Shown here in pieces: positions 1 through 30,281 of a DNA stretch of 64,000 nucleotides; position 1 is the first letter of the stretch; every line of letters starts with the position of its first letter. A model generated the notes under the pieces. The model did no database searches. It saw only the letters and a list, made by a program, of their open reading frames with translations, and was not told the origin of the DNA. The DNA is from a virus, in IMG/VR virus record IMGVR_UViG_3300045988_123906; one strand, 5' to 3'. Position numbers and translations under genes: made by a program.

Positions 1-14
1 ATTACATCAAGCAG

Positions 15-1151
15 GTGAAAATGTTCGACGAGGACTATAAGAAGGCGGGCTGGGTTCGTCTTGAGGATGTCTCTCTGTATGTCGATCGCAGCGGTGACGC
101 TCTGGTCTATCAGAACGAAACCAAGCAGGCGACTATGGTGTTCGCTCCTTCGCCCAAGAGAATCCAGGTCATGCAGATGATGATGAGCTGTCTGCCTCGT
201 CTGCTTCCGTGGGCATTCAAGGATCACCCGGCAACCAGGGATGAACTCGATCTGCTGAAGATGCTGGCTGAGCAGAAGTATGACAAGTTCAATGCGGCAA
301 TCGACAAGATCTGTGCAGCTTATGACTTCTACGGCAAGAAAGTCGAAAGCATGCTCAAGGGATTCTGCAGTCAGAACTTCACCCGCTCGATCCACGATCA
401 GGAAGAACGTGTCCGCCGGGCAGAGAACAACGTCAACGATTATATGAGCAGCGCCCGCAATGCCATGAAGCAGGTGGATGAAGAGCAGATGAAGCTTCTG
501 GTGCTCCGGAATCGTGCCTGCAACTCTGGAGACGATGAGAAGGAGCTGGTCGATTTCTTCAAGGCGAACAAATCTCTTATCGCTCTGGATAAGTCCGGCA
601 ATCAGCTGTGGGTCGGCGTGAACTGCTATCTGAATGACTACAACGAAGATATCTTTAAGCAGTATGTCGAAAAGCAGGATAAGATGTCCAGCTACATCTA
701 CGAGGAGAGCCCGTATGATATGGATCTCACCAAGAAGCTGTTCCTGGCTATCTGGAAAGAGCACCGGTTCAATCTGCGTGTCTACTGCGAGTGGATTGTC
801 TATGATGACTGCCGCGTCGAAGCCGTCAGAAGCACTAACATGAATCACCGAGAAGACCTGATGAAGAATCGTTTTCCTCAGCCGCATATCGACCGGTTTA
901 CCTGTTACGGCGGCTATCGCGGTATGCTTCAGGATCTGGCTCTCCGCCGTGATTACATCGGCGTTTTGTCTACTCTGGTGACTTCTTCTTCCTATATCAA
1001 CTGGACGGATTCTACGGTCGTCGAATGGATGATGGAAAAGCTGTTCGGCGATTATAGTAATCGGAAGTGTCTGGAAGATAAGGATGGTAATCTCTACACC
1101 ATCAAACAGGTGGTTGAGATCCTGGAAAACGAAAGCAGAGAAACGGCATAA
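15..1151 (+). CDS. hypothetical protein, first gene of the JAB/E1-like cluster; weak E2-like patch near the C-terminus
   Basis: Long ORF. AGGTGA lies 4 nt before ATG 21 (GTG 15 is also possible, and the frame is open to the window edge). FPQPHIDRFTCYGGY only loosely resembles the HP[NH]..C core of prokaryotic E2-like proteins. Confidence 0.55.
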   Translation: MKMFDEDYKKAGWVRLEDVSLYVDRSGDALVYQNETKQATMVFAPSPKRIQVMQMMMSCLPRLLPWAFKDHPATRDELDLLKMLAEQKYDKFNAAIDKICAAYDFYGKKVESMLKGFCSQNFTRSIHDQEERVRRAENNVNDYMSSARNAMKQVDEEQMKLLVLRNRACNSGDDEKELVDFFKANKSLIALDKSGNQLWVGVNCYLNDYNEDIFKQYVEKQDKMSSYIYEESPYDMDLTKKLFLAIWKEHRFNLRVYCEWIVYDDCRVEAVRSTNMNHREDLMKNRFPQPHIDRFTCYGGYRGMLQDLALRRDYIGVLSTLVTSSSYINWTDSTVVEWMMEKLFGDYSNRKCLEDKDGNLYTIKQVVEILENESRETA

Positions 1152-1164
1152 GGAGGTTTGAAGT

Positions 1165-2142
1165 ATGCAGCCGGTTAAGATGAATGACGAACTGATCCAG
1201 GGAATTTTGCAGGAGTTCTATGCACAGGCTTCTGCGTTGGGTAATCTGCAGGCGGATAAGTTCTCCTTTAACAAGAATTTTTCCAAGCCTGCCAAGGACG
1301 CAGTCGAGGTGAATTTCACTCTGGAAGCTTATCACGAGATGTGTGCCCTGATCGATCACTTCAGTACCGAGGTCGCCTGGCACGGTCTGGTGAATCGCAT
1401 TGATAAGACTCACTTCCAAATCACCAAGATCCTGGTTTATCCGCAGCAGGTCACGGGCGCAACAGTGAATACGGACCAGGAAAAGTATACGACCTGGCTG
1501 TATGAGCTGGACGATGAATCCTTTAATACGCTGCGGTTCCAGGGCCACAGTCATGTGAACATGAGCACTTCTCCCAGCGGTGTGGATATGCAGAATCAGT
1601 GGGATCTCATTGATACTCTGAGCTCTGAGGATTACTACGTCTTTATGATCTGGAACAAGCGGCGGGAGTATAACGTCCGTGTTGTGGACATGGCGGACAA
1701 TGTCATCTACAGCGGCGATGATGTCAAGGTGACGATTGGAGAGGCCGATACGAAAGGGTTTCTCGAACAGGCGGAAGCGCTCGTCCAAAAGCCGGTCACA
1801 ACCACATACAGCGGCTACAACAATGGCTACAGCGGCAACTACAATGGTGCAGCTTACTCCGGCAACTACAGCGCGGGTACAGCAGCTTATCAGGGAGGCG
1901 CGTTCGTTGGTAACACAAGCTCCGCAGCCGCGTCCACGAAAACAAAAGCAGAAACGAAACCGGCAGCCACGACGAACCCGGCGCTGAAAACTGTCACGGG
2001 TGGAGCCGCCCCTAAGATCGATTCAGCCAAGAGCAAGGGAAGCGAATCCAATCTGATGAAGTATTATCAGGAGAATCCGAACGACCTGATGAACAATTGG
2101 AATTCGAGCTGCTATCCCTACGCTGACGCATTCCAGGACTAA
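1165..2142 (+). CDS. JAB/MPN+ (JAMM) metalloprotease-domain protein with a Tyr/Gly/Asn-rich tail
   Basis: Exact JAMM signature HSHVNMSTSPSGVD (HxHx7Sx2D) with the upstream Glu in TEVAWHG. A GGAGG RBS precedes the ATG. Confidence 0.85.
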   Translation: MQPVKMNDELIQGILQEFYAQASALGNLQADKFSFNKNFSKPAKDAVEVNFTLEAYHEMCALIDHFSTEVAWHGLVNRIDKTHFQITKILVYPQQVTGATVNTDQEKYTTWLYELDDESFNTLRFQGHSHVNMSTSPSGVDMQNQWDLIDTLSSEDYYVFMIWNKRREYNVRVVDMADNVIYSGDDVKVTIGEADTKGFLEQAEALVQKPVTTTYSGYNNGYSGNYNGAAYSGNYSAGTAAYQGGAFVGNTSSAAASTKTKAETKPAATTNPALKTVTGGAAPKIDSAKSKGSESNLMKYYQENPNDLMNNWNSSCYPYADAFQD

Positions 2143-2156
2143 GAAAGGAAACAACA

Positions 2157-2837
2157 ATGGATCTGAGCAAAATCGAAATGGTGTTTGACCCTGCGTCTGT
2201 TAAGGGTCGCATTCATATCATCGGCTGTGGTTCGGTCGGCTCTACTGTGGCTGAACTGCTGGCACGATACGGTCTGACCAAGTTCACTCTGTGGGATATG
2301 GACTTTGTCGAACCCAAGAATATCGTCAACCAGATGTTCTTCCAGCAGGATATCGCCCATCCCAAGGTGGAAGCTGTGGGGAACATTCTGTGCAATGTGA
2401 ATCCTGATATCAAAGAGGATCTGGTTCTGATGCCCAATGGCTGGCAGGGCGAAACCGTCAAGGGTTATGTGTTCCTGGCCGTGGACAGCATCGAGATCCG
2501 CAAGCAGTTCCTGGAGAAGAATAAGTACAATCCTGAGCTGCTCGGTGTGTTCGATATCCGCACTGGCCTGTATGATGCACAGTGCTGGTCGGCCGATTGG
2601 AAGGATCGCAAGCAGATCGACAATCTGAAGAACTCCATGAACTTCACTCACGAGGAAGCAAAGGTAAGTACGCCGGTGTCTGCATGTGGCATTGTTCAGG
2701 GTGTTGCACCGACCGTTCGTTTCATCTGCTGTCTGGCGGTTACGAACTTTATCAATTTCGTGGGAGGCAACCAGCTGAAGAAGCAGATCGTTGCAACCCC
2801 GTTCATTCTGGGTGAAGAGAGCGTCATGGCGTTCTGA
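2157..2837 (+). CDS. E1-like ThiF/MoeB-family adenylyltransferase-fold protein
   Basis: Rossmann loop IIGCGSVGS (GxGxxG) followed by LWDMDFVEPKNIVNQ, typical of ThiF/E1 nucleotide-binding domains. Confidence 0.8.
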   Translation: MDLSKIEMVFDPASVKGRIHIIGCGSVGSTVAELLARYGLTKFTLWDMDFVEPKNIVNQMFFQQDIAHPKVEAVGNILCNVNPDIKEDLVLMPNGWQGETVKGYVFLAVDSIEIRKQFLEKNKYNPELLGVFDIRTGLYDAQCWSADWKDRKQIDNLKNSMNFTHEEAKVSTPVSACGIVQGVAPTVRFICCLAVTNFINFVGGNQLKKQIVATPFILGEESVMAF

Positions 2838-2856
2838 TAAAATCGTAAATAAAAAA

Positions 2857-3120
2857 ATCGTGATGAATAGTTGTTTTTATAAACAGCGCACTTAGGCCAA
2901 GCCAAGTGTATCGAATTGTTAAGAAGAGGGGGTCCTCCCCCTGTGGCATCAACATTGCAAAACTAAACGCGTGCCGCCGGATGACGGTGCTACCACAGGG
3001 TTCGAAACGATCTTCCTGGGTCACCCGAATGCGGTTATATAGCCAATTTCAGCATCCAATCATGATCGGGACCTCCTACAGCATGCATTATAGCCTCAAG
3101 AAACCCATTTAGATCACGAT
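2857..3120 (+). ncRNA. candidate structured RNA immediately upstream of the RT (retron msr/msd-like or other RT-associated ncRNA)
   Basis: 303-nt gap with stops in all frames. Terminal inverted repeat ATCGTGAT (2857-2864) / ATCACGAT (3113-3120). Hairpins AGGGGG-tcct-CCCCCT (2927-2942) and CCCTGTGG (2939-2946) / CCACAGGG (2993-3000). Shares motifs with the element at 4765-5013. Confidence 0.4.
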
Positions 3121-3140
3121 GAAATCATAAAGGAGAAACA

Positions 3141-4373
3141 ATGTACATTACATATCTGAATCCTCCTAAGACTCGGCAGATCACTTTTGATGAGATCCTT
3201 GCCGGTGTCCAGAATGTAGAAGCACTGCACTATGGCGGCAGCAACACATCTACAATGACCGTGTGCCGCAATGACTTAACCGCCAAACTTCGCGCTATCA
3301 CAAATGTTCCTGAGATGATCGAGAAGTTGGTGGACTACAACGTGAAATATGCGACGCTTGAATCCAGCGATATCCCGAGTCACTATTCTCACTTTGAGAT
3401 TCCAAAGAAATCTGGTGGCTGGCGACCCATTGATGCGCCAGATGAAACTCTTTCTGATGCACTGATCGAGCTGCGGGAACTGCTGAAGAGCTTTATGATC
3501 GCAGATTATCACACGAATGCTTTCGCATATATTCCCAATCGCAGCTTTATCGATGCGGTCCGTAAGCATCAGGCAGGTCACAATAAAACCGTCGTTGATG
3601 AGGCGACCGGCATGAAAAAGGTCGTCAATTATCAGAATCATTGGGCGGTCAAGTTCGACTTCCATGGTTTCTTTCCCAGTACGACACCGGATTTTCTGCT
3701 CGGCATGATGAGTGTGATCTATCCATTTGCTCTGATCATGCGGGATGCACATGGCCGAGATGAACTGGCAAAGGCGGTCAACCTGTGCTTTCTTCGCAAC
3801 GGCCTGCCGCAGGGAACTCCCATCAGTCCGTGGCTTACCAATGTGATGATGATTCCGTTTGACCACTGTATCACTCGCAAGCTGTGCTATGGCTACAAAG
3901 CAAAGGACGGCATCGATCGCGAGTTTACTTTCACACGATATGCAGATGATATCCTCATCAGCTGTTATCATCACTTTGACCCGATGGAAATTCAGCAGAT
4001 CATCATTGATGCGTTGAACTTCTTTCATGCGCCGTTTACTCTGAACGAAACGAAAACGCATTACGGCAACCGGCACTCCAGCAAGAACTGGTGTCTCGGC
4101 TTGATGTGGAATAAGGACAATCAGATCACGGTTGGCTGGCGCAATCTTAAAATGTTCCGTTCGGCTATGACGAACTATATCGATACAAAGCAGCATGGCA
4201 GGACCTGGGAGCTGGAAGATCTGCAAAAGTTCAATGGCAAGCTCAACTATTATCACATGGTCGAGCCTGAGGTGATCGACGAGCTGGTTCGTCGTTACAA
4301 TGCAAAGTTCGGCACTGATATTATTGCGATGCTCAAAGAAGATCTTCGTCCCAAAGAGGGCGTTGTTGCATAA
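3141..4373 (+). CDS. reverse transcriptase, retron/Abi/UG-like (not DGR-like)
   Basis: RT motifs 1-7: FEIPKKSGGWRPIDAP, AFAYIPNRS, KFDFHGFFPS, LPQGTPISPWLTN, FTRYADDILIS, LNETKTH, CLGLMWNKDNQITVG. Strong AAAGGAG RBS. Confidence 0.9.
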   Translation: MYITYLNPPKTRQITFDEILAGVQNVEALHYGGSNTSTMTVCRNDLTAKLRAITNVPEMIEKLVDYNVKYATLESSDIPSHYSHFEIPKKSGGWRPIDAPDETLSDALIELRELLKSFMIADYHTNAFAYIPNRSFIDAVRKHQAGHNKTVVDEATGMKKVVNYQNHWAVKFDFHGFFPSTTPDFLLGMMSVIYPFALIMRDAHGRDELAKAVNLCFLRNGLPQGTPISPWLTNVMMIPFDHCITRKLCYGYKAKDGIDREFTFTRYADDILISCYHHFDPMEIQQIIIDALNFFHAPFTLNETKTHYGNRHSSKNWCLGLMWNKDNQITVGWRNLKMFRSAMTNYIDTKQHGRTWELEDLQKFNGKLNYYHMVEPEVIDELVRRYNAKFGTDIIAMLKEDLRPKEGVVA

Positions 4374-4405
4374 AAAATGGAGACATACACAAGGAGTGAT
4401 GATCT

Positions 4406-4753
4406 ATGATTGAAATTATGTGCCGGGATGGAAAGGTCCCATCGAAGGAGCTCGAAAAGGTCGCGGATATGATCTACTATTCCACGGGCATCGAAACAGA
4501 GGTGGTCTACGAAGAGGATCGGAGAGCCCTAGTGTTCTGGGGCCCTGAGGATGTCAAAGAGATCGTGGAAAGTTTGAATCTGAAATCGATCAACACAGAC
4601 GATACCAATTTCTGCGATACCATTGTGGCCGCCGCAGAGCCGCGCATTCACCAGGCAATGCTGGAAGCCGGCAGAGATGTCCTGTTTGATGAAGTCTGTG
4701 AAACGGCTGCATCCATGGGCGAACAAATCGAATTCGATGAGCCCAATCAGTAA
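4406..4753 (+). CDS. hypothetical acidic protein co-oriented with the RT
   Basis: 115-aa ORF with AAGGAG RBS, 32 nt after the RT stop. No recognisable motif. Confidence 0.6.
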   Translation: MIEIMCRDGKVPSKELEKVADMIYYSTGIETEVVYEEDRRALVFWGPEDVKEIVESLNLKSINTDDTNFCDTIVAAAEPRIHQAMLEAGRDVLFDEVCETAASMGEQIEFDEPNQ

Positions 4754-4764
4754 TCAGTAAACAA

Positions 4765-5013
4765 AAAATCACTTTGCATATCGTTCCAAAAGAGCGAGCA
4801 TCACGCCCAAGGCGGATGTTAAGAAGAATACCCCAGCAATCGGCCGCTGCACTCCGCCATAGGCCCCTGATCGTGCAGCTGGCCTCAAACAATCCTTGTC
4901 AAGAAACACTCGTCCTTCGATCCGGGACGAAAGTCACGCGCCAGGTCGCGTGACAGAAGTCCCTGATCGTGCGTCCTCCCGTTTCCAGAGCATCGGATTT
5001 AGAAAGTGATTTT
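4765..5013 (+). ncRNA. second candidate structured RNA, paralogous to the element at 2857-3120
   Basis: 285-nt ORF-free gap. 11-bp terminal inverted repeat AAAATCACTTT (4765-4775) / AAAGTGATTTT (5003-5013). Hairpins TCGTCC/GGACGA (4910-4930) and GTCACGCG/CGCGTGAC (4933-4954). 12-nt direct repeat CCCTGATCGTGC at 4865 and 4961. Confidence 0.4.
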
Positions 5014-5038
5014 GATAAAAAGAAAATGAGGTAGAAAT

Positions 5039-5305
5039 ATGGAATTGATGTATAAGCCAGGCGATAAAGTAATGATTCGCCCGGATCTGAACTGCCGTGA
5101 AATTTATTGCATGAGATCAGGTCGCCACAATGGGGACTATACCTACAATGTGGTTGATCAAATGGTAGATCAGGCTGGAAAGGTTTTTACGATTCAGGGT
5201 CCTCGCCACGGAGGAGCTGGATATACTCTGGAAGAGTCTGATTATGGCTGGACCGACGAGATGTTTATTTCTATCAATGAGTGTTGCTGTGATAGCATTC
5301 TGTGA
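5039..5305 (+). CDS. small protein, tandem paralog family copy A (WTDEMF ... CxCxS[IL]L C-terminus)
   Basis: 88 aa. KPGDKVMIRPDL..YCMRSG..WTDEMF..ECCCDSIL. Aligns with the six other copies. Confidence 0.75.
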   Translation: MELMYKPGDKVMIRPDLNCREIYCMRSGRHNGDYTYNVVDQMVDQAGKVFTIQGPRHGGAGYTLEESDYGWTDEMFISINECCCDSIL

Positions 5306-5313
5306 GGTGAACT

Positions 5314-5589
5314 ATGAAATACAGATACGATGTCGGTGACGCAGTGGTCGTAAAGCGAGATCTCAGAAAGAATTGCAGCTACTTTATGATGTTCGGCCCC
5401 AATCCCAAAACATACAACACTGTTGTCGACGAAATGAAAGAGCTCGAAGGCAAGACCGTTCATATCGCAGAACATATTGATGGTCAATACTTCATTGAAG
5501 AAGACAATAAATCATATGCCTGGACGGATCAGATGTTCCTGACGCAGGACAAATACAGCGCTGCTTGTGTTTGCGAAAGTTTACTATGA
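5314..5589 (+). CDS. small protein, paralog family copy B
   Basis: 91 aa. VGDAVVVKRDL..YFMMFG..WTDQMF..CVCESLL. The junction CTGTGAGGTGAACTATG is nearly identical to the D/E junction. Confidence 0.75.
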   Translation: MKYRYDVGDAVVVKRDLRKNCSYFMMFGPNPKTYNTVVDEMKELEGKTVHIAEHIDGQYFIEEDNKSYAWTDQMFLTQDKYSAACVCESLL

Positions 5590-5605
5590 TTGGAATGATT
5601 TGAAA

Positions 5606-5809
5606 ATGCAGAATCCCTGCCATTATTGTGTGGCTCCCAAGCGTTATCCCGGGTGTCACGATCACTGTCAGGAGCGCCAGCAGTACGTCGAAACTGAGCT
5701 GACACAGCAGCACCAATACAAAGAAAAGTGCCGCATGATCAACGATTTTGATAATGAGCTATACACTCATAACCTGCGTTACAGAGAAAAATATCAACAC
5801 AGATATTGA
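5606..5809 (+). CDS. small Cys/His-rich protein
   Basis: MQNPCHYCVAPKRYPGCHDHC... An alternative start at 5567 overlaps copy B. Start uncertain. Confidence 0.5.
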   Translation: MQNPCHYCVAPKRYPGCHDHCQERQQYVETELTQQHQYKEKCRMINDFDNELYTHNLRYREKYQHRY

Positions 5810-5833
5810 TTTACATAGAAAGGATGAAGATCA

Positions 5834-6655
5834 ATGGCAGAACCGGCACGTAAGCGCAAGGATCGCGTAGTTCAGTTCCCGCAACAGCCTGGTTCCGAAG
5901 CTCACATCACCATGAGCGAAGCCGAGCTGAAGGAAATGATTTGGGACATCGTGGCTGCCGCTCGCAAGAAAAAGCGCAAGACAAAGCCAACCAACAGCCT
6001 TTATACAAAGGATGGCCGCATCAAACCTTCGCCTGCTGATCCGATTCGTTCCAAAGAGGATTTCCAGAAACTGGCGAATTATCTCGCTTCCAACGGCGAC
6101 CCCAAGTTTCGTCTACGCAACAAGGCGATTTTCGTGTTCGGGTGCAGTCTGGGTATTCGTTGTGGCGATCTTCTCAGTCTGAAAACGGCCGATGTTTACG
6201 AACAGGATGGCAGTGTGAAAGAGCATGTCGAACTGATCGAAGAAAAGACCCGTAAGCGCAATGTGTGCAAGATCCCTAAGATGGCAGCTGACATTCTTGA
6301 GGATTATTTCGATGAACAGAATTTCGAGATTAGTCAATCTGATTATCTGTTTCGCAGTCGCAAGGGTGGTCCTCTGACAGTGCGCGGATTTTATCGGATC
6401 TTGAAAGAAGCAGGGAAAGCGTGTGAGCTAGATATCGATCTGTCCACTCATACCATGCGCAAAACCTATGCAATGGCTGCACTTCAGACAGCGAAAAAAG
6501 CTGGTACATCTGGGCAAACGATCGAGATGCTTCAAGAAAAGTTTAAGCATAGCAGCCAGCGTGTCACGATGCATTATGTCAAGGCAGACCAGGATAAGAT
6601 GGACGAAATGTCTGATCGTGTGTCGGACTGGTTCGATGATGGAGGAACGGAATGA
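5834..6655 (+). CDS. tyrosine recombinase (catalytic domain only, 273 aa) embedded in the paralog array
   Basis: Catalytic residues: R in LGIRCGDLLSLK, HxxR in STHTMRKTYA, H..Y in KHSSQRVTMHYV. Confidence 0.85.
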   Translation: MAEPARKRKDRVVQFPQQPGSEAHITMSEAELKEMIWDIVAAARKKKRKTKPTNSLYTKDGRIKPSPADPIRSKEDFQKLANYLASNGDPKFRLRNKAIFVFGCSLGIRCGDLLSLKTADVYEQDGSVKEHVELIEEKTRKRNVCKIPKMAADILEDYFDEQNFEISQSDYLFRSRKGGPLTVRGFYRILKEAGKACELDIDLSTHTMRKTYAMAALQTAKKAGTSGQTIEMLQEKFKHSSQRVTMHYVKADQDKMDEMSDRVSDWFDDGGTE

Positions 6656-6927
6656 CTGATTACATGTATCACCCAGGCGACAGAGTCCGCGTTCGACTTG
6701 ATCTTTCGGAACATGAAGAATATAAAATGTTGTCTGGCGAAAATAAAGGTCAACGCTGGGTGATTTTTGACTGGATGAAAAAATACGCAGGACAAGAGAT
6801 CGTCATTCAAAAGATCGCACAAACTAGTGGTGTTTACAGAGCACAAGGAATCGATGGCTGCATCTGGGCTGATGAGATGTTTGAGCCGCTTGTCGTGGAC
6901 GAGTGCGTTTGTGATTCATTGCTGTAA
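6652..6927 (+). CDS. small protein, paralog family copy C
   Basis: 91 aa. PGDRVRVRLDL..YKMLSG..WADEMF..CVCDSLL. ATGA overlap with the recombinase stop. Confidence 0.75.
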   Translation: MTDYMYHPGDRVRVRLDLSEHEEYKMLSGENKGQRWVIFDWMKKYAGQEIVIQKIAQTSGVYRAQGIDGCIWADEMFEPLVVDECVCDSLL

Positions 6928-6948
6928 TGGAATGGAGGAAGTAGAGCA

Positions 6949-7221
6949 ATGTCAAGATATTATCAGTATAAAAACGGAGAGGAAGTGTTTGTTCGACCTG
7001 ATCTGGAGCGCGGTGTTCAGTATTATATGCGTTCCGGTTACCGAGCAAATGATGTCAGTGTCACCCTTACTTATTCTCAGGCGCAGCGGCTTGGCACTGT
7101 GGTTCATATTGCCGGCAAGCGCAATGGCCGCTATTACATCGATGAAGATTATGGGTGCGATCGGTGGACGGACGAGATGTTCGCAGCACCCAACGAATGT
7201 ATCTGTACGCCGCTGCTGTGA
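6949..7221 (+). CDS. small protein, paralog family copy D
   Basis: 90 aa. NGEEVFVRPDL..YYMRSG..WTDEMF..CICTPLL. GGAGGA RBS. Confidence 0.75.
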   Translation: MSRYYQYKNGEEVFVRPDLERGVQYYMRSGYRANDVSVTLTYSQAQRLGTVVHIAGKRNGRYYIDEDYGCDRWTDEMFAAPNECICTPLL

Positions 7222-7229
7222 GGTGAATT

Positions 7230-7493
7230 ATGGAAGGGAAATACCTGTACGAAATTGGCGACCTCGTAAAAGTTCGCGACGATATTGATCGAAACATGTA
7301 GTATCGTATGCGTTCCGGTCCCAAAGCTGGACGCGAACCCGGGACTGTATATAATATCGGAAAATATAAGGGGTCAGTCCACAAAATCATTTCTTATGAG
7401 CAGGGTTATTACAAAATCGATAATGACCCTGATCATCTGTACTGGTCTGATGAAATGTTTGAGCCGATGTCGGTAAACGAAAGCCAACAGTAA
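7230..7493 (+). CDS. paralog family copy E, interrupted by an in-frame TAG (7299-7301); lacks the CxC tail
   Basis: MEGKYLYEIGDLVKVRDDIDRNM*YRMRSGP...YWSDEMF. Family homology is continuous across the TAG. GAGGTGA RBS before ATG 7230. Confidence 0.6.
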
Positions 7494-7509
7494 CATTGTG
7501 ACATTGGAT

Positions 7510-7659
7510 ATGTCGGAACTTCATGGGCAGTTGGTTCATATTAAAGATTATTCTTCTCACGGGCACTATATCGTAGAAGAAACATATGATTTTAGATGGA
7601 CTGATGACATGTTTTCTGGTTTGGCAAACAATGAGTGCTGCTGCGAATCTCTGTTATAA
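7510..7659 (+). CDS. 5'-truncated paralog family copy F (C-terminal half only)
   Basis: 49 aa. ...GHYIVEETYDFRWTDDMFSGLANNECCCESLL. Matches only the second half of the family. May be a remnant. Confidence 0.45.
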   Translation: MSELHGQLVHIKDYSSHGHYIVEETYDFRWTDDMFSGLANNECCCESLL

Positions 7660-7670
7660 GGAGGCACAAG

Positions 7671-7961
7671 TTGCAAGATACAAAATATCATGTAGGCGAT
7701 GTCGTTATTGTCCGCCAGGATTTAGATTTTAGAAAATGTTATTGGATGCGATCAGGTGGAAAAGAAAACGCTCCTTGGAGGAACGTTGTTTCAGATGTTG
7801 TAACTGAAGACATGATAGAGCTTTGTGGACAGACTATCGAAATCGAAGAAATAGTCGATACGGTCGATGGTAAAAAATACAGAGCAAGAGGTCGCTACTG
7901 GACAGACGACATGTTTTCTGACCAAATCGGCAATGAATGTTACTGTGAATCACTTCTGTAA
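7671..7961 (+). CDS. small protein, paralog family copy G (TTG start)
   Basis: AAGGAGG then TTG at 7671. VGDVVIVRQDL..YWMRSG..YWTDDMF..CYCESLL. Confidence 0.7.
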   Translation: MQDTKYHVGDVVIVRQDLDFRKCYWMRSGGKENAPWRNVVSDVVTEDMIELCGQTIEIEEIVDTVDGKKYRARGRYWTDDMFSDQIGNECYCESLL

Positions 7962-7981
7962 ATTTGAAAGGAGAAATTATC

Positions 7982-8365
7982 ATGGAAAAGAATCTGTTTG
8001 AAATCGCAACTCGTAATCGCTATCGCTTTAACTACAAGGGCGTTATGACCGTAGAGGATCTGTGGAGTCTGCGGGTCGAGGATCTGGATGCCATCTTCAA
8101 GATGCTGAACCGTCAGAAGAAGACCGCCGATGAGGATTCTCTGCTGGCCACCAAGAGCGCCGAGGATCAGGATCTGGCCAATAAGATCGATATCGTCAGG
8201 TATATCGTGTCTGTCAAGCTGGCTGAGGCAGCGGAGCGTGTGTCTGCCGCAGAGAAGAAGGCACAGCGCGATAAGATCATGGAGATCGTGGCAAAGAAAA
8301 AGGATAAGGCGCTGGAAGACATGGGCATCGAGGATCTGATGAAGAAGCTGGAAGAGCTGAACTGA
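7982..8365 (+). CDS. hypothetical coiled-coil protein
   Basis: AAAGGAG RBS 8 nt before ATG 7982. Charged helical C-terminal half. Confidence 0.6.
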   Translation: MEKNLFEIATRNRYRFNYKGVMTVEDLWSLRVEDLDAIFKMLNRQKKTADEDSLLATKSAEDQDLANKIDIVRYIVSVKLAEAAERVSAAEKKAQRDKIMEIVAKKKDKALEDMGIEDLMKKLEELN

Positions 8366-8382
8366 GAAGGGGAGTATCAAAA

Positions 8383-9486
8383 ATGAAAGTTGTTGAAAGC
8401 GCAAGCAATCTGTTCCTGTATGGCGACGATATGAAGGCGTATGACAAGATCCCGGCGGGTACCTATGATATCCACTGTTCTGAGATGACCGGTTTCTATC
8501 TGTCCCGCCGCCCTGATATGGTCATCAACGAAAAGGTGTATGGTGTCCAGAGCAGCAAGGTTGCCAAAGTGCTGAATTCGTTCAAAGTGTTCAACCGCAA
8601 CCTGGGTGTCATCCTCAGCGGCAACAAAGGCATCGGCAAATCTCTGATCGCTAAGATGATTGCAATCGAGGCCGTCAAGCAGGGCTATCCTGTCATTCTG
8701 GCTAACCGCTATATCGGCGGTATCGCCAATTTCATTGAATCCATCGATCAGGAAGTTATGATCCTGTTTGACGAGTTTGATAAAACCTTCAAGTCCCGGG
8801 ATAATGAAAATCCGCAGGATACGATGCTGAGTCTGTTCGATGGCACCAGCGCGGGCAAAAAGCTCTTCGTTGTCACCTGTAACCAGCTCAATGGTCTGAA
8901 CGATTATCTGGTCAACCGTCCCGGCCGCTTCCACTATCACTTCCGCTTCGATTACCCGGGCGCTGATGAGGTCGAAACCTACCTCAAGGATAAGCTCGAA
9001 GAGAAGTATTACGATCAGATCCCAGCTGTGGTCGATTTTTCTGGCAAGATCGATCTGAACTATGACTGCCTGCGGTCTATCGCCTTTGAATTGAATCTGG
9101 GCACTCCATTCGCAGAGGCCATCAAGGATCTGAATATCATCAATATGAACGAGACCAGCTACAAGCTCACTGTTATCTTCAAGGATGGTTACCGTGCGTC
9201 CAGCACCAAGCGTTTTGATATGTTCAATGGTGCACAGCGTATCTGTTTTGATGTCAAGCTGAAAGATGGCTACTGGCCTGATTTCTATATCAATACTGAG
9301 GATATCCAGTATAACCCCGCCAACGGTGAGCAGTTCATTGATGGAAAGAAGATTGATGTGGATAATCCGTATTCCAAGAGTGATGACGATGAAAAGGATC
9401 GTTATGAAGCTTTTGAAAAGGACAACGGTGTGGTCAAAGTCATCATCTCTCGTACTCGTGAAAGAGACATTCACTACATGGTCTAA
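8383..9486 (+). CDS. classical AAA+ ATPase with an unknown C-terminal domain
   Basis: Walker A GNKGIGKS, Walker B MILFDEFD, and NRPGRFHYHF (the RPGRFD-type second region of homology). Confidence 0.8.
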   Translation: MKVVESASNLFLYGDDMKAYDKIPAGTYDIHCSEMTGFYLSRRPDMVINEKVYGVQSSKVAKVLNSFKVFNRNLGVILSGNKGIGKSLIAKMIAIEAVKQGYPVILANRYIGGIANFIESIDQEVMILFDEFDKTFKSRDNENPQDTMLSLFDGTSAGKKLFVVTCNQLNGLNDYLVNRPGRFHYHFRFDYPGADEVETYLKDKLEEKYYDQIPAVVDFSGKIDLNYDCLRSIAFELNLGTPFAEAIKDLNIINMNETSYKLTVIFKDGYRASSTKRFDMFNGAQRICFDVKLKDGYWPDFYINTEDIQYNPANGEQFIDGKKIDVDNPYSKSDDDEKDRYEAFEKDNGVVKVIISRTRERDIHYMV

Positions 9487-9497
9487 GGAGGCTCAAT

Positions 9498-10325
9498 ATG
9501 GTTAAAGCAAATCATTATAAAATCAGTTCTTTTCCTGACGGTACTCCGCTGATCAAGAAGGATCTGACCATCAATTATCTCAACGTGATCAGTATCGTCT
9601 GGACGTTTGAATCTATGGCCGAGCTTCCAACGGTCATTATGATCGCAAAGGATGCAAAGGATAACGGTGCAGAAGTTGAGCTGTTCATGCCGTATATCCC
9701 GAACGCTCGTATGGATCGCGCCTATCACGACGAAGATGTGTTCACCCTCAAGTGGTTCGCTGACGAGATCAATCGGTGCGGATTCAGCTGCGTTACCGTG
9801 TTTGACCCTCACAGTGATGTGGCCCCGGCATTGATCAATCGGTGCGAAGTACATACTCCGATTCGTGAAATCTGTCAGGTAATCGAGGAGAGCAAGCCAG
9901 ATGTGATCTATTTTCCGGATACCGGCGCAATGAAACGATATGAAGGGACTGTTCACTGGGCACTGGATCGAGCAAAGTGCAGTGCCTATATCATCCATGG
10001 CGATAAAAAGCGGGACTGGGCAACGGGCAAAATTCTCGGTTTGGATGTTGTTGGTGAAGTGAAGCCTGGTGAAAAGGTTTTGATGATCGATGATATCTGT
10101 TCTTACGGTGGCACTATGTTCTATTCGGCCAAGAAGCTGAAGGAACTGGGTGCTGGTGATATCGATATGTATGTCAGCCACTGCGAAAACAGCATTCTGG
10201 ATTCTGAGCGTGGCCATCTGTTTGATGATCCAGAACTGATTCACAAGGTTTATACCACAGACAGTATCTTCACCGGCCATCACGACAAGATCACTGTTTT
10301 AGAGCGTCATTGGGGCGAGGACTGA
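9498..10325 (+). CDS. ribose-phosphate pyrophosphokinase (Prs) homolog; candidate ADPR-pyrophosphate synthetase (Adps) of NARP1
   Basis: Prs motifs FPDGT, YIPNARMDR, DPHS, and the PRPP-binding loop VLMIDDICSYGGT. Adjacent to a NAMPT-family gene. Confidence 0.75.
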   Translation: MVKANHYKISSFPDGTPLIKKDLTINYLNVISIVWTFESMAELPTVIMIAKDAKDNGAEVELFMPYIPNARMDRAYHDEDVFTLKWFADEINRCGFSCVTVFDPHSDVAPALINRCEVHTPIREICQVIEESKPDVIYFPDTGAMKRYEGTVHWALDRAKCSAYIIHGDKKRDWATGKILGLDVVGEVKPGEKVLMIDDICSYGGTMFYSAKKLKELGAGDIDMYVSHCENSILDSERGHLFDDPELIHKVYTTDSIFTGHHDKITVLERHWGED

Positions 10326-10326
10326 T

Positions 10327-10584
10327 ATGAAGTATGCAAAAGGTGAAATCCTTAGTGCATATCAGCGCTTAACGAAAAGTATCAAATATGGAGATGCATA
10401 CTGGTCTGAAAAAGCAATGATAAGTGATGTTCTGAGTGATTACTTCAATCGGATCGAGAGCAAGAAAGTTGTAATCGATCCAAAATATGAAAGCTATAGA
10501 TGTCCAAAGTGCAATACAACGTTAATTGGTCAATATGATCACTATTGCGGACAATGTGGTCAGAAATTGGACTGGAGGATTTGA
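10327..10584 (+). CDS. small zinc-ribbon protein
   Basis: CPKCNTTL...YCGQCGQKL (CxxC..CxxC). Confidence 0.55.
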   Translation: MKYAKGEILSAYQRLTKSIKYGDAYWSEKAMISDVLSDYFNRIESKKVVIDPKYESYRCPKCNTTLIGQYDHYCGQCGQKLDWRI

Positions 10585-23492: not shown

Positions 23493-23564
23493 GCTGGAGT
23501 GGCGCAATGGTAGCGCAGGAAATTTGTAATTTTCAGGTTGCAGGTTCAAGCCCTGTCTCCAGCA
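23493..23564 (+). tRNA. tRNA-Thr (UGU)
   Basis: Hand-folded cloverleaf: GCTGGAG/CTCCAGC acceptor, GCGC D-stem, anticodon loop TTTGTAA, TTCAAGC T-loop, encoded CCA. Confidence 0.8.
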
Positions 23565-23620
23565 CCATTAGAACAGCGGGCAACCGCATCAAAGATTATG
23601 TATTACAAAGGAGAATAATT

Positions 23621-24262
23621 ATGACTACTGAAACTATGACAATTCATCGCGCACTGGCCGAGCTGAAGGTTTTGGACGATCGTATCATGAAGCTGCTGAG
23701 CGAGGCCAAGTTTTGTGGTGCCGCTAAGAATTGTATGCAGAAGCTGGGCGGTGTAACTATTGAAGAGTACAAGCAGAATGCCCAGTCTACTTATGATAAG
23801 ATCACTGATTTGATGGCTCGTCAGGCAGCGATTAAGCGGGCGGTGTCCGAGTCCAATGCGGTTACTCATGCTGTTGTATGTGGACATGATTATACTGTTG
23901 CGCAGCTTATTTGGATGAACCAGCACGGCATTGATTTCAAGAGTACTTTGCTCAATGTTCTGGAGCGTCAGTATGCAAGCGCAGTTGCTGCTACTGAGGC
24001 TGCAAACTCCAAGCTGAGTGATAAGGCAGATGATTTTATCAGCAGAAACAACGCTGGCGCAGACAAGAACAGTATGGATGCGGAAGCTATTAAGGATATG
24101 CGAGAGAGCTACATTGAGCGTGAAACCATGCAGCTGGTCGACGGTATCAACATCAAGAAGGTCAAGGAAGAACTGGCTGATGAGATCAATAAGTTCAAGG
24201 CTGAGGTTGACGCGGTTCTGTCTACTTCTAACGCCATGACTGAGATCACAATCGAATACTGA
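23621..24262 (+). CDS. hypothetical coiled-coil protein
   Basis: AAAGGAG RBS then ATG 23621. The longer ORF-track version (23507) starts inside the tRNA-Thr gene. Confidence 0.6.
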   Translation: MTTETMTIHRALAELKVLDDRIMKLLSEAKFCGAAKNCMQKLGGVTIEEYKQNAQSTYDKITDLMARQAAIKRAVSESNAVTHAVVCGHDYTVAQLIWMNQHGIDFKSTLLNVLERQYASAVAATEAANSKLSDKADDFISRNNAGADKNSMDAEAIKDMRESYIERETMQLVDGINIKKVKEELADEINKFKAEVDAVLSTSNAMTEITIEY

Positions 24263-24447
24263 TATTTAATCAGCGAAGCATATTCACTGTCTATCGAAAA
24301 CGACAAACTGTAATCGTTCGTTCTTTGCTGATGGTAGCCTGCTTGAACGAAATCAAATAATAAAAAAGCTAATAACCATTCATATAAAAGCTGGCCTCAT
24401 AAGCCGACAAGATGAAATCAAGTAAAATATTTGGTAATACTTGAATT

Positions 24448-24518
24448 TTTGGATTTGTCAAGAGGTTAAGACGCAAGCCTATAAGCTTGAAACGATGGTT
24501 CGAATCCATTATCCAAAA
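24448..24518 (+). tRNA. tRNA-like gene with an aberrant 6-nt anticodon loop (CTATAA); identity undetermined
   Basis: TTTGGAT/ATCCAAA acceptor and GATGG-TTCGAAT-CCATT T-arm are canonical. The CAAGC/GCTTG anticodon stem encloses only 6 nt. Confidence 0.45.
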
Positions 24519-24793
24519 AAATCGAATCAAGAGAAGGAGTTGTCCCAAGGGCCAACACGTAGTTGATTCAAATGTCTTGGAAAGGTTAACGGTTATTGAT
24601 TTAAAGGTTAAAGGTTGAAAGTTCAAAGCTTAAACTTCTAGCTAAAGATTAAACAGTAATGAATACAGGTCAAAGGTTTATAAAATCCATGGGCACAGGT
24701 TTGTGGATCGATTACATAAGTCCCGTTGTTTACCACATGGCTGGTAGATGGTGAGCGCCTTGGCAGGGGCGTAACAATACCTGCCGTTTATAT

Positions 24794-24867
24794 GGTTCGG
24801 TAGCTCAGAAGGATAGAGCACTAGCCTGTCACGCTAGGGGTCGTGGGTTCAATCCCCATCCGAATCG
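24794..24867 (+). tRNA. tRNA-Asp (GUC)
   Basis: Cloverleaf with anticodon loop CTGTCAC and T-loop TTCAATC. Confidence 0.8.
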
Positions 24868-24872
24868 CTTAT

Positions 24873-24946
24873 GGTCCTATAGTTCAGTTGGTTAGAACGA
24901 GAGACTGTTAATCTCTATGTCACCTGTTCGAGTCAGGTTAGGACCT
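24873..24946 (+). tRNA. tRNA-Asn (GUU)
   Basis: GGTCCTA/TAGGACC acceptor, anticodon loop CTGTTAA, T-loop TTCGAGT. Confidence 0.8.
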
Positions 24947-24952
24947 CTTCGT

Positions 24953-25025
24953 GGTTCTGTAGCTCAGTCGGTAGAGCAGGGGACTGAAAATCCCTGTGTC
25001 GCTGGTTCGATTCCAGCCGGGACCA
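24953..25025 (+). tRNA. tRNA-Phe (GAA)
   Basis: TAGCTCAGTCGGTAGAGCA D-arm, anticodon loop CTGAAAA, T-loop TTCGATT, encoded CCA. Confidence 0.8.
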
Positions 25026-25028
25026 CCA

Positions 25029-25489
25029 ATGTGCAAGTTGATTTGATAATTGAGTTTGGTCGAAATCCTCCATAAAAAGGTTGTCCGCCAAGGTCGAAAA
25101 ATCAACATGAATTCTCACCAAAATGATGTTATCAATGAAATTTGTAATAGGATTAGCGAGGCAGTCACACTCCTGATCAGGGGCCGATGTAGCAAGCTTG
25201 GTCAAACTGCGTGCCCTGACGATGATAAGATCCGCATTCCAGGCGCAACTGTGCGTGAGTCTCACCAACCCGAAAACAGTGAGAGGTGAAGGAATAACAC
25301 TGAAAAACCTTATGTAGCGCGGCTATAACCCGGAAGAGGCTTGACCCAAAAGGATGATCGAGTTTGAGAACCGCAGTGGATAAGCATATCGCCAATAGTG
25401 CTCTGAAGAGTAACGGTAAATGCCGGACGCCTGACCCGTTAAAGCCAGGACGAGGATCACAGGTGACATCCCTCTGTGATCTATATTAT
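25029..25489 (+). ncRNA. candidate large structured ncRNA between tRNA-Phe and tRNA-Lys (class unknown)
   Basis: 461 nt without a convincing ORF or RBS. GC-richer than its flanks. Many local helices, e.g. GATCACAG/CTGTGATC (25455-25482), CTCAC/GTGAG (25260-25282), AACGG/CCGTT (25412-25440). Confidence 0.3.
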
Positions 25490-25562
25490 GCGATCGTAGC
25501 TCAATTGGTAGAGCACTTGACTTTTAATCAAGGGGTAGCGGGATCGTAACCCACCGATCGCA
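25490..25562 (+). tRNA. tRNA-Lys (UUU) with atypical T-loop
   Basis: GCGATCG/CGATCGC acceptor, anticodon loop CTTTTAA. T-loop ATCGTAA (A54/U58 instead of T54/A58) and one T-stem mismatch. Confidence 0.6.
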
Positions 25563-25720
25563 CCACGCGGACCACGCAGTAAGTAGTTTTCGAGTTACAA
25601 CTATTGTAGCCAGTGTTCTTTGGATACGATTGTATTGTTAGTAGTTCTGCGGAAGGAACAAAAACATAAACAGATGACTGCTGGAAATACAACATACATT
25701 TTGATTTTGAGGGTTCAAAA

Positions 25721-26512
25721 ATGAAAGAAAGAGTCTGTGGTATTTATAAAATCGAAAATAAAATAACGCATCAGGTATATATAGGGCAATCAAGATATAT
25801 AGCACGTAGATAGAGAGACCATCGTGTGAAAAGTCAAAGAAAAGACAATGAGTGGTTTCACAGTAGACTTTATACTGCTATGTATGGCCACCTTGACGAT
25901 TTTGATTTTTCGATAATTGAAGAATGCGATCAATCAAAATTAAATGAAAGAGAAATATATTGGATTGACTATTATAAAAGTACAGAGCCGATATACGGAT
26001 ACAATATTCTAATCGGCGGGGATGTAAGTGAACATAATAGAATATTAGGGCAAAATCAATTAAATGAAATAGCCAATCTTTTAGCGACAACAGATCTTAC
26101 TCAAACAGAGATTGCAAATAGATTTGGAGTAGGGCAGCGAACAGTAAGTAGTGTGAATACGGGATATTACAATCTTGACAAAAAGTATATTTTCCCGATC
26201 CGTGATAAAAAACATGTGACTGGGAAAATAAAAGAGCGAGTTGAACAAAAGAAAGCTAGGTTAAATGGACGGGATAAGGGTATGACCGGAATATGTTGCG
26301 ATTGCGGCGGTCCATGTTCTGCTAAAGCAAAACTTTGTCGCTCATGCATGGACAAAACCCGTATTTCAAAACGCCCTGATAAAGATACTTTATTAGGGCT
26401 AACTAAAACAATGACTGTTAGTGAAATAAGTCGCGAATTCAATGTTTCTAGTACTACGGTAAAAAAATGGTGCTCACATTATGGAATTATACCAGAAAGA
26501 AAATACAAGTGA
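25721..26512 (+). CDS. GIY-YIG homing endonuclease with in-frame TAG at 25811-25813
   Basis: MKERVCGIYKIENKITHQVYIGQSRYIARR*RDH... The GIY and YIG motifs lie before the TAG. The same frame continues with NEREIYWIDYYK, GYNILIGG, a Zn-finger CCDCGGPC..CRSC and a C-terminal HTH. Confidence 0.75.
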
Positions 26513-26540
26513 TATTAACATGATTTAATAAAGAGTTTAT

Positions 26541-26613
26541 GCGCCTGTATCTTAATTGGTAAAGAAATGGGCTCTAAACCCAGGGTATCCGTGTTCGAAT
26601 CATGGCAGGCGTG
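26541..26613 (+). tRNA. amber suppressor tRNA, anticodon CUA (26574-26576)
   Basis: Canonical 73-nt cloverleaf. GCGCCTG/CAGGCGT acceptor (G1-U72), TCTT/AAGA D-stem with G18G19, anticodon loop CTCTAAA (U33, A37), CCGTG-TTCGAAT-CATGG T-arm, G73, encoded CCA. Confidence 0.8.
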
Positions 26614-26667
26614 CCAAACAAATTACATAACAGTATCCCTTATTTTATAGAAAGGAGATCGAACATT

Positions 26668-26961
26668 ATGGCAATGATTGATCCGTATGATGATGACTTC
26701 GGTGCCATTTGTAATTGTGCTGTTCGATACGCAGTTGGGCGCAGAACGTATATGCCTGGTCTTGTGATCGATTTCATTACATCGCATCTGAGCGAGTTGA
26801 CAGATAAAACGCTATGGTGCTTTCAGCAGGATCTATATCAACGTCTGGATGAAGGGTTTAATTTTGGTGATGAATTTGATTTTCAAAACTGGATGAGCTT
26901 TCTGGAAGATGTTGATAAAGAAATCAAGAAAAGAAAACAGCCCAGCGGCCATAACCACTGA
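26668..26961 (+). CDS. hypothetical protein
   Basis: AAAGGAG RBS then ATG 26668. The ORF-track start (26602) lies inside the suppressor tRNA. Confidence 0.55.
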   Translation: MAMIDPYDDDFGAICNCAVRYAVGRRTYMPGLVIDFITSHLSELTDKTLWCFQQDLYQRLDEGFNFGDEFDFQNWMSFLEDVDKEIKKRKQPSGHNH

Positions 26962-27225
26962 GCTGTCAGGATTACCCGATGACGTGATTCATCTGCAGAA
27001 CCATCAGTATGAGCCCGACGATACTGCAAATGTCACCAGCGACATCAAGAAAATCTTTCGCCTAACGCTTCATCTAAGCACCTCCAATCCGCTCGAGACG
27101 CGAGAACAATGTCCGTCATTGAGTAACTGGTGTGTCTAGTGAGAGTTAAGTTGGCAAAAGTGTATCACGTTGTTACGCGATTGTCAAGAATCATCCCGAG
27201 CATGATGTGAAAAGGCTTGTTATAT

Positions 27226-27310
27226 GCGGCAATGGCTGAGTGGTTTAAAGCGGTGGACTTGAAATCCATTGATGGTAATACATCCGCGAGTTCGAATCTT
27301 GCTTGCCGCG
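27226..27310 (+). tRNA. tRNA-Ser (UGA)
   Basis: Long variable arm, anticodon loop CTTGAAA, T-loop TTCGAAT, GCGGCAA/TTGCCGC acceptor. Confidence 0.75.
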
Positions 27311-27316
27311 TGATGT

Positions 27317-27388
27317 GGCCTGTTAGTCAAGAGGTGAAGATGCTGCCCTTTCACGGCGGAGACATCGGTTCAATTCCGGTACAGGCCA
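27317..27388 (+). tRNA. tRNA-Glu (UUC)
   Basis: GGCCTGT/ACAGGCC acceptor, anticodon loop CTTTCAC, T-loop TTCAATT. Confidence 0.75.
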
Positions 27389-27421
27389 TTTTTTGAAAAT
27401 TAAATATTGTGAGGTATCAAA

Positions 27422-27649
27422 ATGAAAACAGAAGATTGGATCTCCGTAAAAACTGATTTGCCGAAAATTCCAGACGGCGAGATTTGGAGCAAAAATGTTT
27501 GGATTTATGATGAGAAATACGGACAGCAACAAGGGTATTTTACAACTGATGGGGTATGGTATGAGTTGAACGAGTGTCTTTGGCTAAAAAATGTTACACA
27601 TTGGATGCCTCTGCCAGAAGACCCGCCAAAGGAGAAAAATGAATCATGA
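27422..27649 (+). CDS. DUF551-like phage protein
   Basis: WISVKTDLP...VTHWMPLPEDPP pattern, remembered from DUF551 proteins. Confidence 0.55.
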   Translation: MKTEDWISVKTDLPKIPDGEIWSKNVWIYDEKYGQQQGYFTTDGVWYELNECLWLKNVTHWMPLPEDPPKEKNES

Positions 27650-28398: not shown

Positions 28399-28408
28399 GG
28401 AGGACAAC

Positions 28409-30254: not shown

Positions 30255-30281
30255 AATCAAAATTAAATAGGAGAGAATAAC

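Follow-up and report, generated by a model that had tools for sequence, protein, structure and literature searches.

What use might a phage have for a retron-like reverse transcriptase (RT) whose gene is bracketed by two long stretches that encode no protein? The question is raised by a 64-kb stretch of DNA from the IMG/VR virus record IMGVR_UViG_3300045988_123906 (hereafter the window, meaning this whole stretch, to which the element models and gene searches were applied). A preliminary description of this DNA had noticed the RT gene at about 3 kb from the start of the window and had taken the regions before and behind it for two paralogous, structured non-coding RNA (ncRNA) elements of the kind that accompany retron RTs. 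Retrons are understood as one RT, one RNA and one effector, guarding bacteria against phages. The comparative analysis presented here points to a different arrangement: the locus probably represents a phage-borne, retron-derived system in which a single RT would copy several msr-msd-type RNAs into different small complementary DNAs (cDNAs).

Relatives of the locus were assembled from several sources: 66 viral loci with the RT as query (41–98% identity), 4 loci via the encoding contigs, 73 loci from genome bins (37–48% RT identity for nearly all of them) and 16 new loci with the ThiF-like protein encoded next to element 1 as query, the reach of this last search extending only down to 56% ThiF identity. 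RT relatives number 3347 at E <= 1e-5 and come from gut samples of human, termite, rabbit, horse, ruminants and chicken.

Two structured RNA elements

The gap that precedes the RT gene and the gap that follows orf115, a small gene behind it, are both situated between conserved genes, and the open reading frames (ORFs) inside the gaps are merely mechanical, without conservation. Each gap contains one element; in positions 1–9000 of the window every gene is on the + strand. The layout of the RT gene and of the two elements is as follows.

2838–3140, + strand: gap of 303 nt before the RT gene, containing element 1
2857–3120, + strand: element 1, a retron-like ncRNA gene (match to covariance model R1, fold, kept in all related loci)
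2857–2864, + strand: a1 of element 1, ATCGTGAT, followed by G2865, the candidate branch G
2866–2869, + strand: spacer of element 1, followed by hairpin 1 (2870–2887) and hairpin 2 (2888–2909)
2917–2927, + strand: 11-mer of element 1, TGTTAAGAAGA
~2928–3107, + strand: variable template region of element 1
3108–3112, + strand: TTTAG of element 1, fused to a2 (3113–3120), ATCACGAT
3141–4373, + strand: probable retron-clade RT, 410 aa, with LPQGTPISP, YADD, AVRKH in region X and CLG in region Y
4754–5038, + strand: gap of 285 nt after orf115, containing element 2
4765–5013, + strand: element 2, a second retron-like ncRNA gene (R1 match, fold, a1/a2 covariation between clades)
4765–4775, + strand: a1 of element 2, AAAATCACTTT, followed by G4776, the candidate branch G
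4777–4780, + strand: spacer of element 2, followed by hairpin 1 (4781–4797) and hairpin 2 (4798–4819)
4817–4827, + strand: 11-mer of element 2, TGTTAAGAAGA
~4828–4997, + strand: template region of element 2
4998–5002, + strand: TTTAG of element 2, fused to a2 (5003–5013), AAAGTGATTTT

The predicted folds of the two RNAs have a common architecture, which consists of a closing stem formed by a1 and a2 (8 bp in element 1 and 11 bp in element 2), two neighbouring 5' hairpins, the sequence UGUUAAGAAGA and then GC-rich hairpins, with CCAAG as the loop region of hairpin 2 in both. The folding energy is -78 kcal/mol for element 1 (z = -2.6) and -90.6 kcal/mol for element 2 (z = -5.9). The template region of element 2 additionally contains an internal 12-nt direct repeat, CCCTGATCGTGC, at 4865–4876 and 4961–4972, the two copies of which belong to separate predicted hairpins.

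When the window was re-read, every motif listed in the preliminary description was found where it had been placed; on their own, these motifs are at chance level, and the evidence that the elements are real is comparative and comes from about 140 related loci. The 11-mer occurs three times with up to one mismatch, against 1.5 occurrences expected, and the combination of an 8-bp arm, G, TNAGA and the complementary arm has six matches in the window, of which four are clearly due to chance and two are the real elements. A loose hand-written descriptor yielded about three matches per shuffled window and missed element 1; a tighter version was still noisy, and such descriptors, not being discriminating, were replaced as detectors by the covariance model R1. 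Plain MAFFT or global pairwise alignment of element 1 against element 2 was likewise uninformative, with the centres at the level of shuffled sequence.

The comparative evidence concerns both position and structure. In 65 of 65 viral loci with at least 64% RT identity, both elements are present at the same positions. Across loci, the 5' domain and the end composed of TTTAG and a2 are kept, and the hairpin and closing stems vary by compensatory substitutions. For hairpin 2, aligned in 17 elements, 97% of the cells are paired, 7 of 8 pairs are compensatory and the covariation is 0.73 against 0.28 in shuffled alignments (0/500), falling to 0.14 or less when the alignment is slid. Hairpins 1 and 2 together have a covariation of 0.64 against 0.25 in a seed of 46 elements, and of 0.69 against 0.25, with 91.6% pairing, in 119 model-aligned elements, an alignment that was fitted to the model and is therefore biased toward its structure. 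The a1/a2 stem, in 15 elements, is 94% paired with compensatory changes in 10 of 10 pairs and a covariation of 0.94 against 0.24, a statistic that is inflated because the arms in the most distant loci were picked by complementarity. The G after a1, for which a role in priming is predicted, is invariant in the 15 curated elements (15/15) and nearly so in the 46-element seed, and the AG that precedes a2 is nearly invariant in the same curated set.

Conservation and covariation in homologous loci, the lack of which had been named beforehand as grounds for abandoning the elements, were thus both found, and comparative sequence analysis confirms elements 1 and 2 as real structured RNAs with the msr-msd layout of retrons. 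The architecture that the preliminary description had attributed to both regions is borne out by the folds and the covariation, with the exception of the CCTCC..CAG(n)GCAT block, which is kept only in the closest clade. Its term "paralogous" is appropriate for the 5' domain and the ends of the elements; it does not extend to the centres, which are unrelated.

Copy number and template divergence

Covariance model R1, which comprises 64 positions and 12 base pairs, has exactly two matches in the window, one in element 1 (2857–2922, 52.5 bits, E = 8e-9) and one in element 2 (4768–4824, 31.1 bits, E = 1.3e-3). The model gave 160 matches in 778 kb of diverse loci and 98 in close loci, with exactly two in each of L001–L049; applied unfiltered to nine loci without a match below E = 0.01, it gave 14, which are weak matches in eight of the nine, L107 having none. 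All of the resulting 272 matches (160 + 98 + 14), in 1.4 Mb, are on the strand of the RT gene and 0 are on the opposite strand. They are located 280–380 nt 5' of the RT start codon, or 12–60 nt past its stop codon and thereafter with a period of about 300 nt. Among the 53 loci with at least 3 kb of sequence on each side, the number of copies near the RT at E < 0.01 is 0 in 10 loci, 1 in 10, 2 in 18, 3 in 11 and 4 in 4, these counts being lower bounds because R1 with its default filters misses the 65% clade, in which both elements were verified by eye; the close loci that it misses number 17 (L050–L066), and some distant loci are missed too.

The largest array seen is that of L142 (392–2611), in which seven complete head-to-tail units and the possible start of an eighth directly follow the 3' end of the RT gene. 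The units have periods of 288–367 nt, each has its own closing stem of 9–15 bp with the adjoining G, no real gene separates them, and two subtypes of hairpin 2 are interspersed among them. Across the family, at 37–98% RT identity, the number of copies per RT extends from at least one up to seven or eight, and the copies frequently form tandem arrays without intervening ORFs; the two copies of the window are at the low end of this range. That the second copy in the window leads into a different gene family, a feature emphasized in the preliminary description, is incidental, as the downstream copies of the relatives are found in such ORF-free arrays. In L069, two tRNA-like sequences, recognised by eye, are located directly 3' of the downstream RNA element (~7700–7850).

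A copy number of one to seven or eight, terminal inverted repeats and tandem arrangement are also properties of non-autonomous mobile or selfish repeats, comparable to short interspersed nuclear elements (SINEs) or miniature inverted-repeat transposable elements (MITEs), that would multiply beside an RT gene without any role for the phage. Such repeats are a very improbable explanation, given that no copy is on the opposite strand and hardly any is remote from the RT, that the positions of the copies are stable over 37–98% RT divergence and that the 5' domain and the 3' end are constrained more than synonymous sites. As each element of the window ends 15–25 nt ahead of a ribosome-binding site and an ATG, one might alternatively take the elements for ordinary cis-regulatory leaders or terminators of the downstream genes, unrelated to the RT. 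This is scarcely credible in view of the seven ORF-free tandem units of L142, the strict association with the RT and the fact that hairpin 2 co-evolves in copies that are followed by unrelated genes; furthermore, a promoter and terminator scan detected no signal beyond shuffled expectation.

The co-evolution of hairpin 2 takes the form of parallel shifts among the copies of one genome. The loop of this hairpin is GGCCAAGCC and CGCCCAAGGCG in the clade of the window; both elements of the 65% clade have CCGGATGACCG, L068 has GGTTTTATC and L070 has CGCTGTCAG. Hairpin 2 has an identity of 0.74 among copies of one locus, compared with 0.57 for copies of different loci (0/2000 permutations). The centres of copies from the same genome, on the other hand, are no closer to each other than shuffled sequences (0.61 vs 0.59 in L142, 0.55 vs 0.57 in the window). 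The centres also change quickly. In a sample of 40 phages (the window and 39 loci with an RT 96–98% identical to that of the window), the centre of element 1 has a nucleotide diversity (pi) of 0.18, possibly raised somewhat by alignment error, with 69% of the columns variable in a partly mosaic pattern, whereas pi is 0.018 in the 5' domain and 0.025 at the 3' end of the same element. The corresponding value is 0.068 for the centre of element 2 and 0.066–0.097 for third codon positions of the flanking genes, so that the centre of element 1 evolves at about twice the synonymous rate.

Variable templates of this kind, borne by a phage and situated just upstream of hypervariable small paralogues and a tyrosine recombinase, call to mind a diversity-generating retroelement (DGR) or an editing retroelement, the cDNAs of which would be used as donors for rewriting a target gene at another site in the genome of the phage or of its host. 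Like DGRs, the locus combines a phage-encoded RT, a template RNA and hypervariable sequence nearby. Unlike them, it has no template/variable repeat pair within the 64-kb window, where neither centre has a match of more than 12 nt; the RT is not of the DGR type and belongs to another clade, no gene for an accessory Avd-like protein was found, and the genes downstream are not retained together with the RT. We consider a diversifying or editing function quite unlikely.

Probable retron-clade reverse transcriptase and proposed mechanism

The RT matches the Pfam family RVT_1 (1.5e-15). Its top models in PADLOC are RT_II-A (127 bits), III-A (102 bits) and I-A (100 bits), its best NCBIfam model is retron St85 (142 bits), and in the PDB the best match is the Ec83 RT (3.8e-12), followed by the Ec78, Ec67 and Ec86 RTs. 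The best matches in all three collections are thus retron RTs, in agreement with the initial characterization of the enzyme as retron-like. H143 of region X and L319 and G320 of region Y are invariant in 18 relatives, as are YADD, LPQG and the aspartate of motif A; H143 and G320 correspond to the residues described as most conserved in retron RTs (PMC7736814). Nucleotide diversity at the three codon positions of the RT gene (0.022/0.007/0.097 in the 40 phages) indicates strong purifying selection. The group II intron model TIGR04416 scores 73 bits against a cutoff of 300, and no Rfam intron matches the elements of the window. Judged by these similarities, the RT is probably a divergent retron-clade enzyme, outside the curated families. 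A second, unrelated RT of the UG/DRT type (PADLOC UG18, UG17, UG4) is encoded in L069 at 9000–10346, 1.8 kb 3' of the retron-like RT.

On the reading that we consider probable, in which one retron-derived RT serves several templates, each element would be co-transcribed with its neighbours, and a1 would pair with a2. The two 5' hairpins, hairpin 2 above all, would constitute the handle by which the RT recognizes the RNA (the msr part), and the RT would prime from the 2'-OH of the invariant G beside the closing stem. Synthesis of the cDNA would start at the conserved TTTAG that adjoins a2 on its 5' side and would then traverse the variable centre (the msd part) in the direction of UAAGAAGA. The expected products are two distinct cDNAs of ~170–190 nt in the phage of the window and up to seven or eight in its relatives; the predicted cDNA of element 2 folds at -36.4 kcal/mol (z = -3.4). 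Binding of hairpins 1 and 2 by the RT, the synthesis of cDNA, the points at which it starts and stops, and the branch linkage are all predictions from the layout and conservation of the elements.

Several observations weigh against this reading. The RT is below every curated family cutoff (142 vs 235 bits for NCBIfam retron St85), and the motifs of regions X and Y differ from NAXXH and VTG: NAKIH of Ec83 aligns to AVRKH in the window RT, with loss of the N and the A of NAXXH, and VTG of Ec83 aligns to CLG, with loss of the V and the T. The predicted cDNA of element 1 (-22.2 kcal/mol, z = 0.1) has no significant self-structure, unlike classical msd hairpins. No retron or other Rfam family was assigned to either element at gathering or permissive thresholds, the permissive scan returning only sub-threshold matches to small nucleolar RNAs, regarded as noise, on the opposite strand, and no known retron effector was matched in PADLOC, Pfam or NCBIfam by orf115 or the neighbouring genes. 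The failure of the R1 default filters in part of the close and distant loci belongs here as well, as do the bias of the 119-element alignment and the inflation of the a1/a2 statistic.

Some of these observations would also be expected if the elements were RT-binding structured RNAs that act as scaffolds or regulators, or if they were templates used in a non-retron manner, as in DRT2 and DRT9 (by rolling-circle or homopolymer synthesis, or with protein priming). An RT without canonical NAXXH and VTG that is below all family cutoffs, an element 1 centre without a strong hairpin and a weak similarity to Drt2 and Drt3a (39 bits against a cutoff of 390 and 27 bits against 200, respectively, in NCBIfam) are compatible with such a role. 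A closing stem combined with an invariant G and 5' hairpins is, however, a layout specific to retrons, the UG/DRT models are far beneath the retron models (there is no UG model among the top 25 PADLOC matches of the RT), and long, unrelated and fast-changing centres suit replaceable templates better than a scaffold. All in all, a scaffold or non-retron template appears unlikely.

If the elements are indeed templates of a retron-derived RT, a role for their products is suggested by the templates themselves. Because these are unrelated and fast-evolving, the cDNAs might form a repertoire of decoys or sensors for conflict between phage and host or between phages, a proposal whose chances we regard as about even.

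Linked genes, carrier phage and known systems

The genes around the RT and the elements are the following.

15–1151, + strand: C-terminal 378 codons of a ~491-aa protein, the N-terminal part being beyond the edge of the window
1165–2142, + strand: JAB/JAMM-type metallopeptidase-like protein, 325 aa, with a low-complexity C-terminal half
2157–2837, + strand: E1-superfamily (ThiF-like) adenylyltransferase, 226 aa, adjoining element 1 on its 5' side
4406–4753, + strand: orf115, a small acidic protein of 115 aa between the RT and element 2
5039–7961, + strand: genes after the second gap, consisting of small paralogous ORFs and a tyrosine recombinase

The ~491-aa protein is encoded by the first gene of a conserved block in the clade of the window. 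P0146, a full-length homologue with 99% identity, has 491 aa, which identifies the GTG at position 15 as an artefact of the window edge. Of the 78 diverse loci, 58 encode a homologue upstream of the RT, as do 41 of the 46 full distant loci. An AlphaFold2 (AF2) model of the protein, with a predicted local distance difference test (pLDDT) score of 89.7, has no fold match in the PDB and a single viral match, which is uncharacterised, and a profile search against the PDB returned only coiled-coil noise. The JAB-like protein has weak matches to the JAB models of PADLOC (E = 1e-4), obtained independently, and again weakly, for its L068 homologue, and its translation contains an intact HxH-x7-S-x2-D motif, HSHVNMSTSPSGVD; the gene is present in 60 of the 65 loci with enough upstream sequence. 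The ThiF-like protein matches Pfam ThiF (3.3e-19) and, in profile searches, UBA5, Uba1, TcdA, MoeB, MccB and Cap2. Its gene precedes the RT in 67 of 71 loci, and conversely the RT is present in 16 of the 16 new viral loci that were anchored on ThiF (down to 56% ThiF identity).

With L081, L093 and L117 as references, a block of genes for proteins of ~132 aa, ~76 aa and ~491 aa, the JAB-like protein, the ThiF-like protein and the RT is retained in 27–46 of 46 distant loci, and the genes outside this block, at either end, in 0–9 of 46. Directly ahead of the RT, the genes for the ~491-aa, JAMM-like and E1-like proteins are maintained over a range of 37–98% RT identity. Because the adjacency is conserved and has sharp edges, we infer that the RT is functionally tied to the E1-like, JAMM and ~491-aa proteins, with which the cDNAs would probably act jointly. 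The form of the block in which the two small genes (~132 and ~76 aa) stand ahead of the ~491-aa gene can be seen in L081 (8–4622). These two genes were considered as candidates for an E2 and a ubiquitin-like protein (Ubl), an identity that is not claimed, as no domain match supports it.

Downstream of the RT the gene content is less stable. The gene orf115 is kept ahead of element 2 in all clades with at least 60% RT identity and is found in 3 of 78 diverse loci, that is, it is absent from the more distant relatives. Its family comprises 25 clusters, none of which is annotated; orf115 has no match in Pfam, PADLOC, NCBIfam or PHROGs, and a Foldseek search of the PDB with its AF2 model (pLDDT 71.5) found no match. 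In L001, L038 and L043, at 5160–5720, an extra ORF of ~167–186 aa without a database match is found between the RT and the orf115 homologue, overlapping the 3' end of the RT gene, and the position of element 2 suggests the same ORF in L044, L012 and L040. The region 5039–7961 contains at least seven paralogous ORFs of 53–108 aa that share a W(T/S)D(E/Q)MF motif and a C-terminal C.C(E/D)SLL motif, a series split by a tyrosine recombinase of 273 aa (5834–6655). The paralogues are the most diverse genes among close relatives, also non-synonymously (pi 0.075–0.10), and match only weak PHROGs of unknown function. Neither they nor the recombinase are conserved with the RT, with which they co-occur in 3 and 7 of 78 loci, respectively.

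Elsewhere, the window encodes a DNA polymerase, a DnaB-like helicase, a ligase, an anaerobic ribonucleotide reductase, NAMPT and ten tRNAs. Given this content of replication and tRNA genes, and as the nearest relatives of the window are viral contigs of about 55–150 kb from gut metagenomes, the carrier is a large phage. One tRNA (26541–26616, in the cluster of ten at 23493–32099) has the anticodon CTA, of the amber-suppressor type, and is labelled Pyl by ARAGORN; it could reflect recoding of TAG in part of the phage genome. According to their record titles, L072–L144 are phage-like contigs of 95–360 kb binned into metagenome-assembled genomes (MAGs) that are labelled Oscillospiraceae, Lachnospiraceae and Defluviitaleaceae, but also Alistipes, Prevotella, one archaeon and one betaproteobacterium, the majority being Clostridia. 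These labels probably result from the mis-binning of phage contigs and are unreliable for host assignment.

Retronphage phiR73 carries Ec73, and retron-type RTs in viral genomes are therefore not new in themselves: retrons have been described in phages and satellites, at P2/P4 hotspots (PMC9122126) and in a survey (10.1101/2024.10.26.620412). Those are canonical, single-ncRNA defence types in temperate elements of Proteobacteria, unlike the distinct RT family described here, which is found in large phages from gut MAGs mostly labelled Clostridia. Bacterial retrons, which consist of an msr-msd ncRNA, an RT and an effector and have been classified into 13 types (PMC7736814), share with the present locus an adjoining ncRNA on the same strand, the a1/a2 stem, the G at the junction, msr-like 5' hairpins, a variable template ahead of a2 and probably the RT clade. 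They differ from it in having one ncRNA, whereas an RT of the present family is accompanied by two to seven or eight ncRNA genes, located both upstream and downstream of it. The templates are also long here (~170–190 nt) and not always a single hairpin, AVRKH and CLG replace NAXXH and VTG in an RT that scores below the curated cutoffs, and E1-like, JAMM and ~491-aa genes, on viral contigs of ~75–150 kb, take the place of a known effector class.

Type VI Retron-Vpa2 is built from a hybrid RNA with one template, a helix-turn-helix (HTH) protein and a small toxin (bioRxiv 10.1101/2025.10.22.683967). Element 2, which ends ~25 nt before a small ORF, resembles this type in that the template RNA and the downstream small-protein gene may form one transcript; it differs in that most downstream copies in the family precede another copy rather than a gene, and in that the small ORFs are not conserved with the RT. 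The closest parallel to the arrays comes from engineering. In multitrons, arrays of retron ncRNAs or msds were constructed on Eco1 for multiplex editing, and the paper describes no natural counterpart (PMC10370050). Both consist of one RT and an array of units with different templates; the array described here is natural, conserved and fast-evolving, unlike its synthetic analogue.

No natural multi-ncRNA retron was found in the literature searched, the coverage of which is incomplete, so that an earlier description elsewhere is possible. Within the same incomplete coverage, no retron linked to E1 or JAB genes was found, nor anything relevant on phage-encoded retrons of this kind. The remark in the preliminary description that two diverged copies around one RT are unusual is in keeping with this outcome, as engineered retron arrays were the only comparable case that the searched literature provided. 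The locus looks like a natural multi-template retron, previously known only as an engineered design. A more far-reaching and more tentative possibility, which we hold to be less than even, is that it exemplifies an unrecognised phage system that belongs to none of the 13 retron types. In such a system, a retron-derived RT with 2–8 interchangeable, rapidly diversifying templates would generate a repertoire of small DNAs and work together with an E1-like enzyme, a JAMM peptidase and a protein without a structural match. Against host immunity or rival phages, the DNAs might then act as decoys or guides; alternatively, they might be substrates for enzymatic modification or conjugation. The whole would amount to a natural, programmable and multiplexed DNA-writing module.

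The usual architecture of a retron appears here both inverted and multiplied, with the RT in the phage and paired with an array of different templates. If the cDNAs are made, the design of the multitrons, which were engineered for multiplex genome editing, is already in use in nature, and the RT family would be a candidate source of enzymes that accept long (~180-nt), interchangeable templates by means of a small hairpin handle. It would also pose a testable question, namely what role reverse-transcribed DNA has for a virus of gut Clostridia.

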